A stretch of 64,000 nucleotides of DNA from a virus: positions 27,650 to 91,649 of IMG/VR virus record IMGVR_UViG_3300017774_004344; one strand, 5' to 3'. Of the stretch, positions 27,456 through 50,075 are shown in pieces. The notes below the pieces were generated by a model. The model was not told the origin of the DNA and ran no database searches. It saw only the letters and a program-made list of their open reading frames with translations. Position 1 is the stretch's first letter. Every line of letters starts with the position of its first letter. Both the position numbers and the translations under genes were made by a program.

Positions 27456-27962
27456 TCAGGGGCTAGGGGGCCAATGGGAATACTCTTCGCTATTGACGTA
27501 TGTATCTAGGCTTTCAGGAGATTCGCACCCTTGGATGGCGTCGGTTTTTGATTCCGCTGCGGTACGAATTGACTCACGCCACGTGATTGTTTCCGGAAGT
27601 GCTTCCACACCGGTTTCTGATTGGCGAACAACTACCCAATCAGTCGGTTGTAACAGGGAATAGGCTTTGGAACTTACTGCCTGTTCGTAGGTTGTTTTAC
27701 TATCGGTCAGGGGCAAAAGTTGAACGGCGTATGCCAGGGTAGCATCGTTGCCTTCGATAACAAAACTTGACTCCAAAGTGTAAATCAGGGGGTTGAAAGC
27801 TGGGGGTTGACTGTTAGTGAACTTGTAGAAACCGGCAGCCGCTAGTTGCCCAGGGGTGCTTACGCTAGGGTCAATGCCCCCGTAATAAGCGACCCAGTTT
27901 TTGTCCACAACTTTTGAGTCGTTTTCCCCTGCGTTAGAGTTGTAAAAGTAAAGTAAAGCCAT
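27456..27962 (-). CDS. Tail fibre assembly chaperone-like protein
   Basis: LLQPTDW.V.R..E...WR..IR motif. Confidence 0.6.
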   Translation of the reverse strand: MALLYFYNSNAGENDSKVVDKNWVAYYGGIDPSVSTPGQLAAAGFYKFTNSQPPAFNPLIYTLESSFVIEGNDATLAYAVQLLPLTDSKTTYEQAVSSKAYSLLQPTDWVVVRQSETGVEALPETITWRESIRTAAESKTDAIQGCESPESLDTYVNSEEYSHWPPSP

Positions 27963-43518: not shown

Positions 43519-45144
43519 TCACTCTAGCATAACATTTAGATTGGGCACGAAGTTATTCAGCAATTCCGCCAATTTTTCACCGTATTCTGAGCTCTTTTGT
43601 GTCTGAAGTTTAAGTCTCGCGTTGTTGTCTCCTCTCACAGACTGCGCTTCACTGTCGGTTAAAATACGAGCTTTTCTTAAATCATCTAAGCCTTCCTTGA
43701 GAGCTTCTTTCTTTGTGGGGTCGATAGCAGCCAACGCTACCAAAACCGCTGTGCTCGGTTTCACATTGGTTCCAGGTAATTTTGAAACTCCGTTGTTCAT
43801 AAAAGCGGGTTTGCCGCCGTTTCTGTGGTCTAAGTCTCTATCCTGGTGTTGCCAGCCTACCTCGGCCGCTCTCACTAGGTATCGAACTTTATCACCGTAA
43901 GCCTGAATCAACCCTTTCACTCCTGCAATTCTTTCTTCGGGTGTCTGAGACGATAAAGCCTTGGCTATATCTGTGGGAGCAGACCCCTTCTTACCTTTGG
44001 CCGCTTCAGCTTTGCTTGCAGCGGGGTTATATACCTCGCGCTCGTAAGCCTCTCTGCCCATTTTTTTGAACTCTTGAAGACGTTCTTTCCACTCCACGAA
44101 ATTGTCGCCGGAGCCCGCTTTTTGGTTGTTCGGTTGGGATGCCGACCAAAGCAGGTTGCGAGGTTGGTCACCGCCACCACCCTTTGCGAGTGCGTGGGCA
44201 AATGCAACCATGTGCTCTGGCTCTGCATTTCGAATATCTATAGGTTTTCCTGTGTAAGGGTCTAGTCCTCCCTGTTCCATCCAGCGCTTAACCAAGAAAA
44301 CCCCTCTCTCTCGTGTAGGTTTGTCTGAAAAGGTAGGATTTCCGTCATTATCGTTTCCGGCGAACATTACCGACTCTCCTGTAACAGCCCCCGCCTTGTC
44401 TATAGCGGACCGCACTTTCGAGGGAAGCATGTAGTAAGCAGTCGTCGCAACTTCATCCGAGACCTTATTCACAAGGTAGTTTGAGCTTATTAGGTCCCCC
44501 ATACCCCCCCTTTGAGATGGGTCGAATTTTCCGTTTGAACCGAAGGAATTCTGATAAGCTTGTTCTAACTGTTCTAATTTCCCTGGCTTCAAGACAGCCT
44601 CTATATCTTCGAAGCTCATCACACGGGGAGCGTTCCTGTCTTGGCCGGGGGTTAAAGTGGTGCTAATGAGAAGCTTAGCTACCGAGTCTAACTCTGTCTC
44701 GGAAGTTTTGCCCGAATCCACTAGTTTCTTAAAGAGGTCAAACGCTTTTAGTTGGGAGTTTTCTGTACTTTTTATCTTTGAGACAACCTCTTCTGATTGT
44801 TCTTCTGAAATTCTATCTTCGCTCACTTGCTCAGATAGGACTTTGGACAGTCTTGTTAATGCAATTCCGAGTGGAGCAGGCAAAGTTGATATGCAATCAT
44901 CATTCTTGTGAATACACGTTGCAGAACAAGGCTTGCCTGAGGAACACTTTTTAGCTTTCCCTGCAGACTGAGAAGCTTTTTCCTTCGCCTTTTGTATCTC
45001 TAGACTTGTGTGTTTTCCCCTCAGGGAAGAGCCACCTGTAGCCTGCTTTTCTCGTCTTGCTTCATCCTGGAGAGCTTCCAGGACTCCTTCCCCTACTTTT
45101 TCAAGCCTTGAGGAGAAATTTTGCCAGAGAAATTTACTGCTCAC
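43519..45144 (-). CDS. HNH-domain protein with N-proximal Cys4 motif
   Basis: QGGLDPYTGKPI...EPEHMVA...GGGD.P.NLLW...PNNQK; CSSGKPCSATCIHKNDDC. Confidence 0.75.
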   Translation of the reverse strand: MSSKFLWQNFSSRLEKVGEGVLEALQDEARREKQATGGSSLRGKHTSLEIQKAKEKASQSAGKAKKCSSGKPCSATCIHKNDDCISTLPAPLGIALTRLSKVLSEQVSEDRISEEQSEEVVSKIKSTENSQLKAFDLFKKLVDSGKTSETELDSVAKLLISTTLTPGQDRNAPRVMSFEDIEAVLKPGKLEQLEQAYQNSFGSNGKFDPSQRGGMGDLISSNYLVNKVSDEVATTAYYMLPSKVRSAIDKAGAVTGESVMFAGNDNDGNPTFSDKPTRERGVFLVKRWMEQGGLDPYTGKPIDIRNAEPEHMVAFAHALAKGGGGDQPRNLLWSASQPNNQKAGSGDNFVEWKERLQEFKKMGREAYEREVYNPAASKAEAAKGKKGSAPTDIAKALSSQTPEERIAGVKGLIQAYGDKVRYLVRAAEVGWQHQDRDLDHRNGGKPAFMNNGVSKLPGTNVKPSTAVLVALAAIDPTKKEALKEGLDDLRKARILTDSEAQSVRGDNNARLKLQTQKSSEYGEKLAELLNNFVPNLNVMLE

Positions 45145-45227: not shown

Positions 45228-45950
45228 TCAATCTTCGTACCGTTCCAAAATGTGAGCAATGACGGAGTTTCGAACGATGTCTTCTTTCTGAAACTGTATT
45301 ATACCCACTTGTTCTAGGCTCTTCAGTCTATGAATAGCATCAAGTAAGCCATTATCCCTCCTAAAAGCATCTAGATCAGCTTGCCTAGTATCCCCAATAA
45401 GGCAAATTTTAGAATCTTTCCCTACTCGGGAGAGAGCCGTCTTACAATGGGTAGATAGAAAGTTCTGAGCTTCATCAACAATAACGAACGAATTATTGAG
45501 CGATCTTCCGCGTATATCTTCCAGGAGGATAGGCTCTATTATTTTCTTAGAGAGCAGGTATTCAGCAGCACCTTGAGAGCGCATGATACATGGAAGATTG
45601 TCGTAGATGGGGGCCACCAGAGGGGCCATTTTTTCCGACATTTCTCCTGGTAAGGATCCCCTACCTCTTTGCAATTCCACTCCCACATCGCTGCGAACAT
45701 AGTAGATCTTGTCAAAGTTTCCCTCGGAAACTCCTACGAGTCCGTAGTGCAGGGCTATAAGGGTCTTACCCGTGCCAGCATGCCCAGCGGCTATGGTAAC
45801 AGTATTCTTGCTAAGAAGGTTCCAAAATTCTTCTTGTCTCCAAGTTAAGAATTTCGGTGCGGAAATGTCCATTCCCCTGTTATAGGAGCGTTCGACCATT
45901 TGGGCAGACTCAGCACGGCGCGATCTGCGCTTTTCTCTAGATTTCAGCAT
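45228..45950 (-). CDS. phoH: PhoH-like ATPase
   Basis: GHAGTGKT, G.LPG...EK..P, IRGRSL, IVDEAQN, SRVG..SK...GD..QAD, IVRN. Confidence 0.95.
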   Translation of the reverse strand: MLKSREKRRSRRAESAQMVERSYNRGMDISAPKFLTWRQEEFWNLLSKNTVTIAAGHAGTGKTLIALHYGLVGVSEGNFDKIYYVRSDVGVELQRGRGSLPGEMSEKMAPLVAPIYDNLPCIMRSQGAAEYLLSKKIIEPILLEDIRGRSLNNSFVIVDEAQNFLSTHCKTALSRVGKDSKICLIGDTRQADLDAFRRDNGLLDAIHRLKSLEQVGIIQFQKEDIVRNSVIAHILERYED

Positions 45951-46051: not shown

Positions 46052-46108
46052 TTGTGAAAGGGCGACTCTACAACCCTATTTTACCCTCGGTGCCGGGAAG
46101 GTAACCGG

Positions 46109-46130
46109 AAAAGCCATCTTTCGATGGCTT
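46109..46130 (-). terminator. Intrinsic terminator
   Basis: aagccatc-gaaa-gatggctt followed by tt. Confidence 0.65.
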
Positions 46131-46181
46131 AAGAGCTAAAGAGACCACCATTCATCACGGTTTAGTAATCGCTCTATGTAC

Positions 46182-46385
46182 TCATTCCTGGACCCCTTCA
46201 ACGAACAAGTCGAACCCGTTGGCTCCGCCACACCATCGGGAGTAGGAGTCTTCAGGTATGACATACTGGGGTCTTTTTTTCGCTTGATTAAGGTACTTAT
46301 CCGAGGTAAGGTCTGTAATGAGGCAACGAGTGCCGTGAAGCTCCTGCATGATAGCAGGGTTTTTATCAGTTGGTGAAATAGCCAT
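46182..46385 (-). CDS. Hypothetical protein
   Basis: ORF 46182..46412; ATG at 46385 (MAISPT) preferred. Confidence 0.6.
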   Translation of the reverse strand: MAISPTDKNPAIMQELHGTRCLITDLTSDKYLNQAKKRPQYVIPEDSYSRWCGGANGFDLFVEGVQE

Positions 46386-46444
46386 TTTGATACTGTTGGT
46401 GAACAACAGCAACTTTTTATGCGGTTGCGAATCGCAATTTGTCG

Positions 46445-47851
46445 TCAGGTGACGATGGGTAGTAGTTGACTGTAGCTAACTAAGATTGCACATAGGGTGT
46501 CGGATAATGAAATCTGGAAGTTATCACAGGCATCCAACGCACTGAGAGTATCCGAATTAGAGAATTTTACTTTTCCTGATCTTAACATTTGAATGAAGGC
46601 ATTTAATTTGGTTTGTTGCAACTTGCCACCTACGCAAACGTTTAACCCCAAGTCCTGTAGGTACACAACCCAAGCTGCACTTCCCGAAGCGGACTCAAGT
46701 ACAATTTCTTCCGCTCCGTATGCCTTAACTGCTAGGCTTAGGATTACTCCGACAGTTTTCAAGTCCCAATTGCCTTCGTAAGTATCAAGAACATACATGT
46801 AGTCCCTTTTCTTTGTAACCCCTGCGATGCAAATACCTGTTTTATCAATGCTGTCGGCACTGAAAGCAGGATCAACAGAAATGATTACTTTATCTAATGG
46901 GGGGATTTTCGGTGTCGGTGAGCATCCCTTATAGTGCCAGGAGAACTCTTCATCGCCGATATTCCTTCTAATATGGTTTAAATTTTCGGGGGACCAGAAG
47001 GAATTGATTATACTCGGGGTTTCCCCTACATTCCTACCCAGAATATCATTTTCTGCCTCTTCTTTACTTTCGATAATTGCTGACAAATTAATGTGGACTG
47101 CTCCTTTCGGGTTTGATACGGGGTCGAAAACACCGAATTTCTCTAAGAAGTAGCCGAAAATGTCTTCATCACCCCATCTTGACCCAAGAACAACAATGGC
47201 ACTGTTTTGGTGGCGCCGGGTCATAATTTCCTCTTCTATCCAGCCTTTATTTACTGTTATATTTGAGGACTTGTGATAGTCATCGATCAACCAAACCCCT
47301 GGTACCCCGTTGGGCCCACCCCAAGGTGAACGATACCCGTGCCTACGCCAGGTGATGTTAGCCGATGTTACGCTATCAGCCCGCAAATCAAGTTTTGAAA
47401 ACAATTCCTCAAAAGGAAAGGCACTAACCAACTGCTTAACTCTACTTACTGCTAAGTCGGTGATACCCACATTGTAAGAAGTTACTGAATGATTTGTGGT
47501 GGGGTCTTTCCCTAAAAGCCAAGACAGAAATAGGGAGCCCAATGTAGACTTCCCTGTGCGAGGAGGCATTGATACTAAGAGGATTGGATACCTACCTTCA
47601 GCAATGTCTTCAAAGGCGGACCCCAAGACTTCATAAGTTTTCCAATTTAGCAGGGAGCCAAATTCTACTTGGGCGGAACGAGACAAATAAGTAGGAAAAC
47701 TATTTTTGGCGAATTCTTTAATGGACCGCGAAACTTCTTCCTCGGTGGCCCCATTCACTTCAAGTTCAAGAAGTTCTCTTTTATACTTCCTCCAGCTTGA
47801 ATGTTCCGATAGCTGGGAAGCGTGTGTTATTTTTGGGTTTTTTGGTGTCAT
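46445..47851 (-). CDS. Divergent, shortened terminase large subunit paralog (TerL-2)
   Basis: MPPRTGKS Walker A, LIDDYHK, GSRW, ISVDPA; N-terminus homologous to the adjacent terL. Confidence 0.8.
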   Translation of the reverse strand: MTPKNPKITHASQLSEHSSWRKYKRELLELEVNGATEEEVSRSIKEFAKNSFPTYLSRSAQVEFGSLLNWKTYEVLGSAFEDIAEGRYPILLVSMPPRTGKSTLGSLFLSWLLGKDPTTNHSVTSYNVGITDLAVSRVKQLVSAFPFEELFSKLDLRADSVTSANITWRRHGYRSPWGGPNGVPGVWLIDDYHKSSNITVNKGWIEEEIMTRRHQNSAIVVLGSRWGDEDIFGYFLEKFGVFDPVSNPKGAVHINLSAIIESKEEAENDILGRNVGETPSIINSFWSPENLNHIRRNIGDEEFSWHYKGCSPTPKIPPLDKVIISVDPAFSADSIDKTGICIAGVTKKRDYMYVLDTYEGNWDLKTVGVILSLAVKAYGAEEIVLESASGSAAWVVYLQDLGLNVCVGGKLQQTKLNAFIQMLRSGKVKFSNSDTLSALDACDNFQISLSDTLCAILVSYSQLLPIVT

Positions 47852-47869
47852 TTTAGTTAAGTGAATTTG

Positions 47870-49633
47870 TTAATCCCAGAGGTTGTACCCAGACCCCCCG
47901 CGAAGGTTTCTGCTCCGGCCACCTCTGAAGAGACCTTGATTAGGAGTGTTGGCAGACTGATAGTCGGGGTCGTTTAAATTACCGCCGCCGGGCATTCTAC
48001 GCCCGCCAAGGGCACTACCCTTGTCCTCAAACAGGTTTCCGTAAGATGCGCCGTCACTGAAAGCGGGCCTGCGAAGGTCGCCGCTCCACTTTCGGTTCTG
48101 GATAATCGACTCTTGAATTCCCCTGTCGATGGTGTCAAGTTTGAGAGAGTAGTAGGTTAAAGCCCACACCATCGCGTCGAGACTGTCTTCGTGCCTTACA
48201 TAGGGGAAAGAGGTTAACTCTTTTACGAAGGGATCCGTCCATAGACCCCTTACTAGTTTAACGCGGCTGTTCTCAAGTAAAGGGCAGACTGCCTGAAGGC
48301 GAGTGGTTTTCGACTTTAAGGGCCGCATTTCTTCGATGGGGATTCTAGCTTCCCTCTTTAGCATCTGAATGAGAGAGTGACCGGAAGCTGCTTTTTCGAT
48401 GCAAAGAACCTTCGCTTTATAGAAAGCATACTGCTGCTTTACAGATTCAATCAAGTCCGGAAAGCCCCATTTACCTTTCACGATGTCTCGAATGTAGACA
48501 ATGTCCGGTGTCCGAGTACTTATCCCAGCCACACAGATTGCACTTTCGTCTGCCATCTCCCTTTCAGAAAAGGCACAGTCAACTCCGAACCATACAACAT
48601 CTAGGTCTGGGCAGTCTTCCTCTTCGATAATCTCGACCCAGCTGCTTTTTACAATTTGCCCCTCGGAAGCTACAGGGACTCCCTGGTATAGTGCGGCAAA
48701 CTTGAAGCTGCCCATGATCTTTTTCTGAGACTCAAGCATAGGCACAGAGAAGGCAGAATTTTCCGGCCAATGGCTCTCTCCTAGTTGTCTACCTAGAGGG
48801 TCATTCTCAGGGTCCTCACAAAGTCCTGCGATGTTGATCCATCTCCACCCGAATGGGTTCTCCTCCGGGTCATAGAGTCCATCCCCGTCAAGTAACACCC
48901 CATGAAGGTCTTTCTCATGGAAGCGAGTGGCTATAATGACTTGGGCATAGTGGTTAGTTCTTCGAGTAGACATTTGCTCTGCCCACCAACTTTCTAAGCC
49001 GTCTATGGCTGCTTTCGAATCTGAAGATTTCAGCGGATCGTCGATCAACGCCGCTCCAATACCCACTGAGTCCATATCAATGGTCCCGGAAGTGAAGCCC
49101 GTAAGAATACCTCCCACAGAAGTCGCAAGTATGTAGCCACCTCCTATTAAGTCATATTTAGAGTCTCGGTTGAATCCCGAAAACTCAGGAAAGACTTTTC
49201 TAAAAGAGGGTGTTTTCATCATGACTACTGCCTCTCTGTGGAACTTTTGAGACAACGTGGCACCGTAAGAAGCCAAGATATGCTGTGTCCTTTCGTCCTT
49301 ACCTAGAAGCCACGCCAAAAACATCGTGGAAAGCATGGATTTACCCGAACGCGGAGGGCACGATATAATGAGACGTCTGTACCTTCGTTCAAAAAGATCC
49401 TCAAAAGCGCTGGCAATGATTTCGTGAAATGGGACAACTTTTAAGTCCCCATTTTTCATAATGTCACAGAAGGCCAGGAAACAATCTCTCGCTGCTTTAT
49501 GCTTGAATTCCTGAATTACGGACTTAGGGGCTTCAAGAAGCTCAAGTTCTCGAATCCCTCTTTTATACTTCCTCCACCGTGACTTTTCGTCAAGCTGAGA
49601 AGCATGTGTTATAGAGGGGTGTTGAAAGGTCAT
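47870..49633 (-). CDS. terL: Terminase large subunit
   Basis: CPPRSGKS, LIDDPLK, ATRFHEKDL, ALYQG.P, GVDCA, IEKAASG, SK..R, HEDSLDA. Confidence 0.93.
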   Translation of the reverse strand: MTFQHPSITHASQLDEKSRWRKYKRGIRELELLEAPKSVIQEFKHKAARDCFLAFCDIMKNGDLKVVPFHEIIASAFEDLFERRYRRLIISCPPRSGKSMLSTMFLAWLLGKDERTQHILASYGATLSQKFHREAVVMMKTPSFRKVFPEFSGFNRDSKYDLIGGGYILATSVGGILTGFTSGTIDMDSVGIGAALIDDPLKSSDSKAAIDGLESWWAEQMSTRRTNHYAQVIIATRFHEKDLHGVLLDGDGLYDPEENPFGWRWINIAGLCEDPENDPLGRQLGESHWPENSAFSVPMLESQKKIMGSFKFAALYQGVPVASEGQIVKSSWVEIIEEEDCPDLDVVWFGVDCAFSEREMADESAICVAGISTRTPDIVYIRDIVKGKWGFPDLIESVKQQYAFYKAKVLCIEKAASGHSLIQMLKREARIPIEEMRPLKSKTTRLQAVCPLLENSRVKLVRGLWTDPFVKELTSFPYVRHEDSLDAMVWALTYYSLKLDTIDRGIQESIIQNRKWSGDLRRPAFSDGASYGNLFEDKGSALGGRRMPGGGNLNDPDYQSANTPNQGLFRGGRSRNLRGGSGYNLWD

Positions 49634-49653: not shown

Positions 49654-49926
49654 TCACTCTAGATTTTTCAGTAACTTTTCTAGTGTCGTATTGTACTCTT
49701 TAGCTAAGACCTTTTCTTGCTTACTTTCAGAATCAGTCAGACTTACAATGTCGGAAACGATCTCGCGGTGGGCTTTCACAGCTGAGTTAAAGACGGTAAC
49801 AAGGTCGCGAGTGCTGCAATCCTCAAGTTGGCCTTGTAGGAGCTCAAGAGCGTCTTCGGCAACCTGCAACGCTGCTGCTGCAAGGGACTCTTTCTGTTTC
49901 AGAATTTTTTCGTTGGGGCTTGTCAT
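49654..49926 (-). CDS. Helical protein, candidate terminase small subunit
   Basis: Immediately upstream of terL; ATG at 49926 overlaps the upstream stop (ATGA). Confidence 0.5.
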   Translation of the reverse strand: MTSPNEKILKQKESLAAAALQVAEDALELLQGQLEDCSTRDLVTVFNSAVKAHREIVSDIVSLTDSESKQEKVLAKEYNTTLEKLLKNLE

Positions 49927-50075
49927 AGTGTTTTTCTGCATCGTGAGCACCCTGTTTTTACAGTGGGGTAGCTCTTAAAGTTTTGTAATTGTTTCAGGAT
50001 TGCTTGTGCTAGGGGCATATTATTAGACTTAACAGCAACGTCGTACTGGGCCCATAATTGCGCTGGAGTCGCCAT
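49923..50075 (-). CDS. Small protein, 50 aa (MATPAQLWAQYD...GCSRCRKTL), not in the ORF track
   Basis: Starts 2 nt after the upstream stop and is ATGA-coupled to the downstream ORF. Confidence 0.65.
   Translation of the reverse strand: MATPAQLWAQYDVAVKSNNMPLAQAILKQLQNFKSYPTVKTGCSRCRKTL

Follow-up and report, generated by a model that had tools for sequence, protein, structure and literature searches.

Tailed phages are generally taken to need exactly one large terminase subunit (TerL), the protein that acts as the motor of DNA packaging and that is also a main target of bacterial pattern-recognition immunity. In phage T4, gene 17 additionally gives rise to shorter products, which are made by internal initiation. 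The Xanthomonas jumbo phages XaC1 and XbC2 have been described as carrying "two large terminase homologs" in tandem and no identified small terminase (PMC11273794), and in phage phiPDS1 the large terminase is split, such that its ATPase and nuclease domains are found in separate open reading frames (ORFs) (PMC10773633). Full-text literature searches returned no description of a conserved pair of TerL paralogs, the nearest reports being the remark on the Xanthomonas tandem and the accounts of split genes. Here we describe such a pair in a stretch of 64,000 nucleotides, referred to below as the window, which is the right-hand 64 kb of a 91.6-kb IMG/VR virus contig (record IMGVR_UViG_3300017774_004344, positions 27,650 to 91,649; about 40% complete by CheckV). 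The window encodes an ordinary large terminase, TerL1, and, directly behind it, a second one, TerL2. As judged from comparative sequence analysis, TerL2 is a functional and selectively maintained accessory paralog of the phage large terminase.

All of the features discussed here lie on the minus strand. TerL1 is the canonical protein, of 587 amino acids (47870..49633; PHROG 38, E 2.8e-76; Pfam Terminase_6C, E 4.5e-16), and TerL2 is the accessory paralog, which in 468 amino acids harbors complete ATPase and RNase H-like nuclease domains (46445..47851; PHROG 38, E 1.9e-24). A preliminary description of this DNA had read the two as adjacent, full-architecture TerL genes rather than as the parts of a split gene, and this reading holds. 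Both ORFs span these positions free of stops and frameshifts and both match PHROG 38 across both domains, so that the arrangement typical of a split terminase, with one domain per ORF, is absent. The N-termini are homologous, as had been claimed, with BLASTP aligning TerL1 and TerL2 at 31% identity over residues 1-460 (E 2e-56) and the alignment running from the first residue to residue 430 of TerL2. The motifs that had been listed for the second copy (PPRTGKS, LIDD, GSRW, VDPA and LESA) are all present, the linker is 16 residues shorter and the Gly/Arg-rich tail is absent, as described, and the picture of a true pair of paralogs, the second remodeled yet intact, is upheld.

Both proteins begin with a common peptide that is around 60% identical between the paralogs, against 31% overall. 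In TerL2 it reads ITHASQLSEHSSWRKYKRELLEL (residues 8-30; 47762..47830), and it is shared with TerL1 (49544-49612) and with the single-copy TerLs of the family. The consensus, [IV]THASQL.E.SSWR.Y.R, is common to TerL2, TerL1-type proteins and many single-copy members, and the peptide is conserved across the whole TerL family, including the phages that lack TerL2. At the DNA level, there are just two copies of the 16-mer TTTTATACTTCCTCCA, at 47779 and 49561, where 0 would be expected, and both sit within a 99-nucleotide direct repeat of 73% identity that spans both N-termini. This identity had been noticed earlier and ascribed to local duplication, an explanation that fails on comparison across genomes, since TerL1 and TerL2 are on average 0.593 identical in this region within genomes and 0.596 between genomes. 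On these figures, neither a recent local duplication nor gene conversion accounts for the 5' ends, and the same comparison gives no sign of gene conversion at the peptide. As there is no excess identity within genomes, the resemblance of the 5' ends reflects the conserved peptide and not recent copying.

Among cultured phages, Synechococcus phage S-CBWM1 (Aokuangvirus, 139 kb) is the closest; in it, an identical gene order contains a single TerL, gp103, with a small ORF and a gene for a PhoH-like protein behind it. TerL1 is 61% identical to gp103 and TerL2 29%, and a single TerL of the TerL1 type is found in more than 50 relatives. The TerL1 family extends to more than 649 clusters at E below 1e-10, compared with around 33 clusters at 90% identity, or four at 50%, for TerL2. 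The identities to gp103 and the sizes of the two families make TerL1 the ortholog of the essential gene and TerL2 the extra copy, and it is TerL1, not TerL2, that clusters with the single-copy genes, gp103 included. Orthologs of TerL2 are absent from the isolate collection, where the best match is the S-CBWM1 TerL itself at 29%, and megablast against isolated phages gave no match. The carriers of TerL2 are uncultivated freshwater jumbo phages related to cyanophage S-CBWM1. A link between TerL2 and jumbo genome size was considered and rejected, as CheckV completeness implies genomes of around 216-228 kb without TerL2 and 229-283 kb with it.

TerL2 is encoded in thirty IMG/VR loci, at identities from 90% down to 51%, and its ORFs are intact at 465-476 amino acids across around 30 loci. 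In every such locus of sufficient reach the order is TerL1, TerL2, PhoH, with TerL2 directly downstream of TerL1, and a complete 279-kb genome with direct terminal repeats encodes exactly TerL1 and TerL2. The ratio of nonsynonymous to synonymous substitution rates (omega, or dN/dS), calculated by the Nei-Gojobori method over five non-overlapping pairs with bootstrap 95% intervals, is 0.26 for TerL2 (0.21-0.31, bootstrap maximum 0.35) and 0.044 for TerL1 (0.031-0.057), such that TerL2 evolves approximately six times faster. When more pairs were used, some of them overlapping, TerL2 gave around 0.23-0.34 in every region, including the nuclease. TerL2 is thus under purifying selection and is not a decaying duplicate.

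The preliminary description had named a dN/dS near 1, or pseudogenization in relatives, as the marks of decay; the ratio is instead 0.26, and the gene is intact in around 30 of 31 relatives. An omega near 1, stops or frameshifts, and patternless loss, as expected of a pseudogene, do not characterize TerL2. That TerL2 is a decaying, functionless duplicate or an artefact of assembly is scarcely credible, even though constraint on it is relaxed relative to TerL1 and three relatives carry apparent lesions. In one of these, a 277-kb contig (L039:7720-7770; IMGVR_UViG_3300044625_001067), a run of six C residues contains a +1 frameshift that breaks TerL2 into two otherwise conserved halves, and the shift reflects either an error of sequencing or an inactivation that happened very recently. 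In the other two (L025 and L026) the ATG, located beside a poly-A run (AAAAACCAAAAAA), does not share the frame of the rest of the gene, which is likely a homopolymer error or a sign of an alternative start. These shifts lie in homopolymers and may be sequencing errors, whereas the ORF is intact in members as distant as 51% identity, the catalytic residues are invariant, omega has an upper bootstrap bound of 0.35, and the pair recurs in around 30 independent assemblies from many samples as well as in the complete genome.

When a tree was built with outgroups, the TerL2 sequences formed a single clade on a stem of 1.1 substitutions per site, outside a well-supported clade of TerL1 and S-CBWM1, and their two sub-clades are only around 52% identical to each other. 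The long stem and the low identity between the sub-clades indicate that the duplication is old. Approximately unbiased (AU) tests reject neither a position of TerL2 as sister to the TerL1 and S-CBWM1 clade (p 0.32) nor one inside it (p 0.18), and the duplication may therefore have come before or after the S-CBWM1 split. A search of 1.8 billion representatives identified TerL1-type proteins as the nearest relatives of TerL2 beyond its own family, and TerL2 arose once, by duplication within the S-CBWM1-type TerL family.

Against curated family models TerL2 gives a mixed result. Besides matching PHROG 38 over both domains (E 1.9e-24), it scores 17.4 bits against Pfam Terminase_6C (cut-off 22.6), with Terminase_6N unreported, and 26 bits against NCBIfam termin_lrg_T7, for which the cut-off is 150. 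Single-sequence searches against solved structures gave no match, and only a profile of 86 diverse sequences reached the T7-like and Thermus-phage TerLs among them. A first structure prediction from 25 close homologs was poor, with a predicted local distance difference test (pLDDT) score of 62, and was replaced by a deep-alignment AlphaFold2 (AF2) model built on the 86 diverse sequences (pLDDT 89.3; predicted template modeling score, pTM, 0.82). The whole model matches PhiV-1 TerL (8dgc_E) with a Z score of 20.7 over 399 residues (VIA-align), a comparison in which the root-mean-square deviation (rmsd) is uninformative because it spans two domains. Taken singly, the ATPase domain with its lid matches T4 gp17 (2o0j; Z 16.2, rmsd 3.7, 230 residues), and the nuclease domain matches those of G20c (5m1k; Z 13.9, rmsd 3.5, 145 residues) and SPP1 (2wc9; Z 13.7, rmsd 2.9, 147 residues).

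The catalytic motifs of the ATPase are retained. Walker A is SMPPRTGKST (residues 94-103; 47543..47572), and the pattern PPRxGK[ST] is found in 23 of the 25 TerL2 members, the other two having Arg for the lysine and Cys for the arginine (P0012) or His for the arginine (P0015). Among the 86 diverse TerLs, P97 never varies, and conservation at R98 and K101 is at least 90%. Walker B is VWLIDD (residues 186-191; 47279..47296), in which W187, L188, I189 and D190 are invariant in TerL2 and D191 is at least 90% conserved. LIDD holds across the 25 sequences save for one LIDE, and D190 is also invariant across the 86 TerLs. Motif III is LGSR (residues 222-225; 47177..47188), with G223 and R225 invariant in TerL2 (G[ST]R in all 25) and R225 invariant across the 86. 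TerL2 therefore has the features by which an ATPase of the TerL superfamily is recognized, namely the Walker A lysine, the Walker B acidic pair and motif III.

The nuclease similarly retains the RNase H-like fold and the three metal-binding carboxylates that are typical of the superfamily. Profile alignment to the TerLs in the PDB places D327, E386 and D451 of TerL2 on G20c D294, D347 and D429, which mutagenesis has shown to be indispensable metal ligands (PMC5389553). The first ligand, D327 (46871..46873), is invariant in TerL2 and at least 90% conserved in the 86 TerLs, and the second, E386 (46694..46696), is at least 90% conserved, with Lys in one member. The third, D451 (46499-46501), falls within the sequence SDTLCA (46490..46501) and is invariant in the 25 TerL2 sequences, where the residue before it is Ser in all but two. 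C454 (46490-46492) replaces the Asp of the canonical "DA". At all columns with full invariance or at least 90% conservation among the 86 TerLs, TerL2 carries the consensus residue: P96, P97, R98, K101, S125, Y126, G172, D190, D191, R212, R225, D230, R273, Y307, D327, E386, L398 and D451.

The final nuclease motif of the second copy had been called degraded. This is correct for its surroundings, where the preceding His and Asp and the following "DA" Asp are lost, but not for the indispensable D451 of the "SD", which is invariant. A reading of the motif as that of a dead nuclease is not supported, since TerL2 retains all three of the carboxylates that G20c TerL cannot do without. All TerL2 members are missing the residues equivalent to H427 and D428 of G20c; in G20c, mutation of these residues reduces cleavage and does not abolish it (PMC5389553). 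Basal TerL2 lineages retain the "DA" Asp (SDIMDA), and loss of this residue is not diagnostic, since the active G20c enzyme, which reads HDDIVMSL, is also without it.

Other parts of the protein are lost or altered. All TerL2 members lack the "ELT.FP" motif, and all lack the C-terminal arm and Gly/Arg-rich tail, which in TerL1 amount to around 95 residues (493-587; 47873..48157). In alignments of TerL1 the arm is conserved (LKLD.VDRGLQ..IIQNKRF) and the tail that follows it is variable. The TerL2 model ends at the last nuclease helix (451-467 of 468), and so the extension past the nuclease that would be expected of a portal-docked motor is absent. The site of the 16-residue linker deletion, SPTP|KIPP (46907..46912), is defined against TerL1 and the family consensus QG.P....G...K. 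This loss is limited to the sub-clade of the window, other TerL2 sub-clades keeping part of the segment (PVKSGFKLCEE). Finally, a hypervariable patch (residues around 157-183; 47303..47383) is among the lowest-confidence parts of the model (pLDDT around 71). In the window, L004 and L005, an unrelated and non-alignable patch replaces the GG.xCG..YG that precedes Walker B, of which the TerL1 counterpart is GG.LTG. A compensated frameshift was rejected as the origin of this patch, as the family motif is found in no other frame and the DNA cannot be aligned.

Certain members go further in the erosion of the nuclease. In the divergent singleton P0157 all of the ATPase motifs are kept and both the Glu and the last Asp are changed to Lys; in another, P0158, the ATPase motifs are again all kept and the first Asp is changed to Ser; and P0021 has lost a nuclease metal ligand. 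The trend is thus one in which the nuclease is reduced and the ATPase stays constant. P0158 and P0048, a normal TerL1, share a longest contig of 4,542 bp, and this equality of lengths, the only basis for the pairing, suggests that the nuclease-defective protein is encoded beside P0048.

These changes bear on the suggestion that TerL2 has been repurposed as an ATP-dependent nuclease or translocase outside packaging, for instance in the breakdown of host DNA or in the processing of branched replication or recombination intermediates before packaging. A complete ATPase joined to an RNase H/RuvC-like nuclease with all three metal ligands, and without the presumed portal-docking arm, would suit such an enzyme, and the nuclease domain matches Holliday-junction resolvases with a Z score of around 12 (fowlpox resolvase and Ydc2). 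However, RuvC-like resolvases are matched by all TerL nuclease domains, which makes the match uninformative, and the loss of auxiliary nuclease residues from all TerL2 members, together with that of metal ligands from P0157, P0158 and P0021, argues against nuclease action as the activity under selection. TerL2 is also tied to packaging by its N-terminal terminase peptide and its constant place behind TerL1, and on balance repurposing of this kind appears quite unlikely.

TerL2 behaves as a mobile cassette. A tree of TerL1 from 77 related loci, of which 25 are with TerL2 and 52 without, places the TerL2 loci in two separate, strongly supported clades. The other loci run from TerL1 to the small ORF and then to PhoH, and cassette-free contigs of 70-136 kb hold no second TerL anywhere. 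When the window is compared with the cassette-free locus L049, homology breaks in the variable tail of TerL1 and resumes at 46438, just past the TerL2 stop. The window combines a TerL1 of clade A with a TerL2 of the clade-B type. Against L005, the synonymous divergence (dS) of TerL2 is 0.24 and that of TerL1 is saturated, and DNA identity rises from 66% to 87% exactly at the TerL1 stop codon before dropping again inside PhoH. TerL2 has been exchanged between lineages by homologous recombination as a one-gene cassette.

The interval between TerL1 and PhoH is a hot spot for accessory genes in general. In two loci without TerL2, the segment between TerL1, together with the small ORF, and PhoH instead contains a homing-endonuclease-like gene (PHROG 314; L088:4000-4767) or a histidine-box desaturase-like membrane protein together with a 154-amino-acid ORF on the opposite strand (L070:5991-7140). 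In a Logan contig of 3493 bp, a 750-amino-acid ORF (P0014) consists of a partial TerL2-like ATPase domain (1-257) fused in frame to a complete TerL2 that begins at "...PKNPKITHVSQL", and this partial tandem fusion indicates that the TerL2 locus is prone to further duplication. Scans of viral and metagenome contigs for the surroundings of P0157, P0158 and P0014 found nothing. P0037, a TerL1 96% identical to that of the window, and P0021, a TerL2 59% identical, share a longest contig of 280,768 bp; taken from these equal lengths only, the pairing suggests another cassette swap.

What TerL2 does can be approached from what it has kept and what it has lost. Our preferred reading, to which we give a probability of about 0.4, is that TerL2 is a portal-independent auxiliary terminase ATPase that acts with the TerL1 maturation complex. 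A passage in the report on D6E TerL proposes that its C-terminal arm perhaps interacts with the portal (PMC5727402), and because TerL2 has lost the arm that is the proposed portal contact in other phages, it is probably not a subunit of the docked motor; by this analogy, the armless protein would not dock on the portal. It would instead act away from the capsid, as an enzyme powered by ATP whose nuclease is attenuated. By way of the common N-terminal peptide it could meet the partner of TerL1, either a small-terminase-like factor or TerL1 itself, and in this way it may assist or tune the DNA recognition and cutting step of packaging, or modulate the assembly of TerL1. The ATPase would be the core of its function and the nuclease secondary, since divergent members lose nuclease ligands and never the ATPase motifs. 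The near-invariant catalytic residues and the fixed place behind TerL1 would fit an enzyme of the packaging pathway.

A number of points weigh against an auxiliary role in packaging. TerL2 is absent from 52 of the 77 related loci, and dispensability on this scale is odd for a core packaging helper. The gene is split in the 277-kb relative described above. No small terminase was identified in family-model searches of the window proteins. The portal-binding role of the arm, on which the off-capsid placement would depend, is borrowed by analogy from other phages. Lastly, rapid evolution, a hypervariable patch and exchange as a cassette are more often seen in genes engaged in conflict.

It is in the area of conflict that the other candidate roles are found. 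Avs1-4 recognize TerL and portal folds by direct binding (PMC13581612), and TerL2 could accordingly act as a counter-defense decoy or sponge, which would bind TerL-sensing host sensors (STAND NTPases of the Avs1-3 type) without productive activation and so shield TerL1. An omega of 0.26, a hypervariable surface patch, presence/absence polymorphism, cassette exchange and residence in an accessory hot spot all suit this role, as does the preservation of the TerL fold and of both active-site regions. Yet a faithful mimic of TerL would be expected to trigger the sensor and not to block it, 468 amino acids is large for an inhibitor, and the near-invariant catalytic residues and N-terminal peptide point to enzymatic work and to a partner on the phage side. 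The literature search yielded no TerL decoy and PADLOC returned no match for TerL2, and we regard the decoy as decidedly doubtful.

A weapon in phage competition, in which TerL2 would poison the small terminase or TerL of co-infecting relatives through the family-wide peptide while being unable to dock on the portal, is very improbable. The peptide is indeed conserved in phages that are without TerL2, the arm is missing, and the distribution is mobile and patchy, but the phage's own TerL1 would be poisoned as well. TerL2 is always co-directional with and close behind TerL1, and is therefore probably co-expressed with it, and there is no sign of co-evolved self-immunity, the TerL1 backgrounds after exchange being only 64% identical to each other. 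A broader possibility, and again an unlikely one, is that TerL2 represents a mobile class of portal-independent "auxiliary terminases" that is traded among phages and acts in conflict, either with host sensors or with rival packaging, and not in routine packaging.

For the auxiliary terminase reading, expression alongside TerL1 is also relevant, and here the layout of the locus is informative. In order along the minus strand lie a 407-amino-acid ORF, a 98-amino-acid ORF, TerL1, TerL2, a 67-amino-acid ORF, PhoH and a 541-amino-acid ORF. The spacer from the TerL1 stop (TAA) to the TerL2 ATG is 18 nucleotides long (47852..47869), and no terminator-like hairpin was found between the two genes. As they are co-directional, so closely spaced and without an intervening terminator, TerL1 and TerL2 are probably co-transcribed. 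In the window they share the same frame (47849-47872), with no stop besides the TerL1 TAA to separate them. The same is seen in most clade-A relatives (L004, L018, L021, L024 and L028-L032), where a single stop (TAA, TGA or TAG) and 18 or 33 stop-free nucleotides separate the two; in clade B and in L022, TerL2 is out of frame with TerL1. Stop readthrough in the window would yield a TerL1-TerL2 fusion of around 1060 amino acids. Programmed readthrough was nevertheless set aside and the shared frame treated as probably incidental, given that the stop codon varies and that clade B and L022 are out of frame.

The 67-amino-acid ORF downstream of TerL2 (46182..46385; MAISPTD...RWCGG.NGFD.F; PHROG 1414, function unknown, E 4.5e-14) has homologs in L070, L081 and L088 and probably corresponds to S-CBWM1 gp104. 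All relatives have it behind the terminase, whether or not they carry TerL2, and because it lies directly behind TerL1 where TerL2 is absent, it marks the downstream edge of the cassette. Beyond it is the conserved PhoH-like ATPase (45228..45950; Pfam PhoH, E 3.6e-51), in a gene order identical to that of S-CBWM1, and then the 541-amino-acid ORF (43519-45144), for which PHROG 3561, of unknown function, is the sole match. Downstream of the 67-amino-acid ORF, at around 46105-46132, is a hairpin, AAGCCATC-GAAA-GATGGCTT, followed by TTTCC. It is possibly the end of the terminase transcription unit; a consensus terminator scan did not list it. Upstream of TerL1, the 98-amino-acid ORF (49654..49950) occupies the position of S-CBWM1 gp102 and is a possible small-terminase candidate, although it has no family match.

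The significance of TerL2 is that a second large terminase persists under selection despite the loss of the presumed portal-docking end, and that it moves between phages as a cassette. One possible meaning is that, in phages of around 280 kb, the labor of the terminase holoenzyme is divided, with one subunit cutting or regulating and the other translocating. Alternatively, the terminase fold may have been put to use in conflict. Whichever holds, a deeply studied system would gain a new component. The TerL2 family supplies natural variants that differ in whether nuclease ligands and the linker segment are present, and TerL1 and TerL2 can both be expressed without a cultured host.

Among known systems, the Xanthomonas jumbo phages XaC1 and XbC2 resemble the window in having two TerL-like genes side by side in a jumbo phage genome. 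There, however, the pair is an annotation remark only, without analysis of conservation, selection or motifs, and its likeness to TerL2 is one of description. Phage phiPDS1 likewise has two adjacent ORFs annotated as large terminase, but in the window both domains are found in each ORF and the two proteins align over the whole length. The products of T4 gene 17 also provide more than one TerL-related polypeptide per phage; these are nested in one gene, whereas TerL2 is a separate, diverged gene. The closest system in fold is the canonical S-CBWM1/T7-like TerL itself, exemplified by S-CBWM1 gp103 and, among solved structures, most nearly by PhiV-1 and T7 gp19. With it TerL2 shares an ASCE ATPase with lid and an RNase H-like nuclease, along with PPRxGKS, IDD, the motif III arginine, the three nuclease carboxylates and the N-terminal peptide. 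In contrast to the canonical protein, TerL2 is a second copy and not an ortholog. It is without the arm, the tail, 16 linker residues, the His and Asp ahead of the last catalytic Asp, and ELT.FP; it evolves six times faster, is dispensable in most relatives, and falls below the Pfam Terminase_6C threshold.

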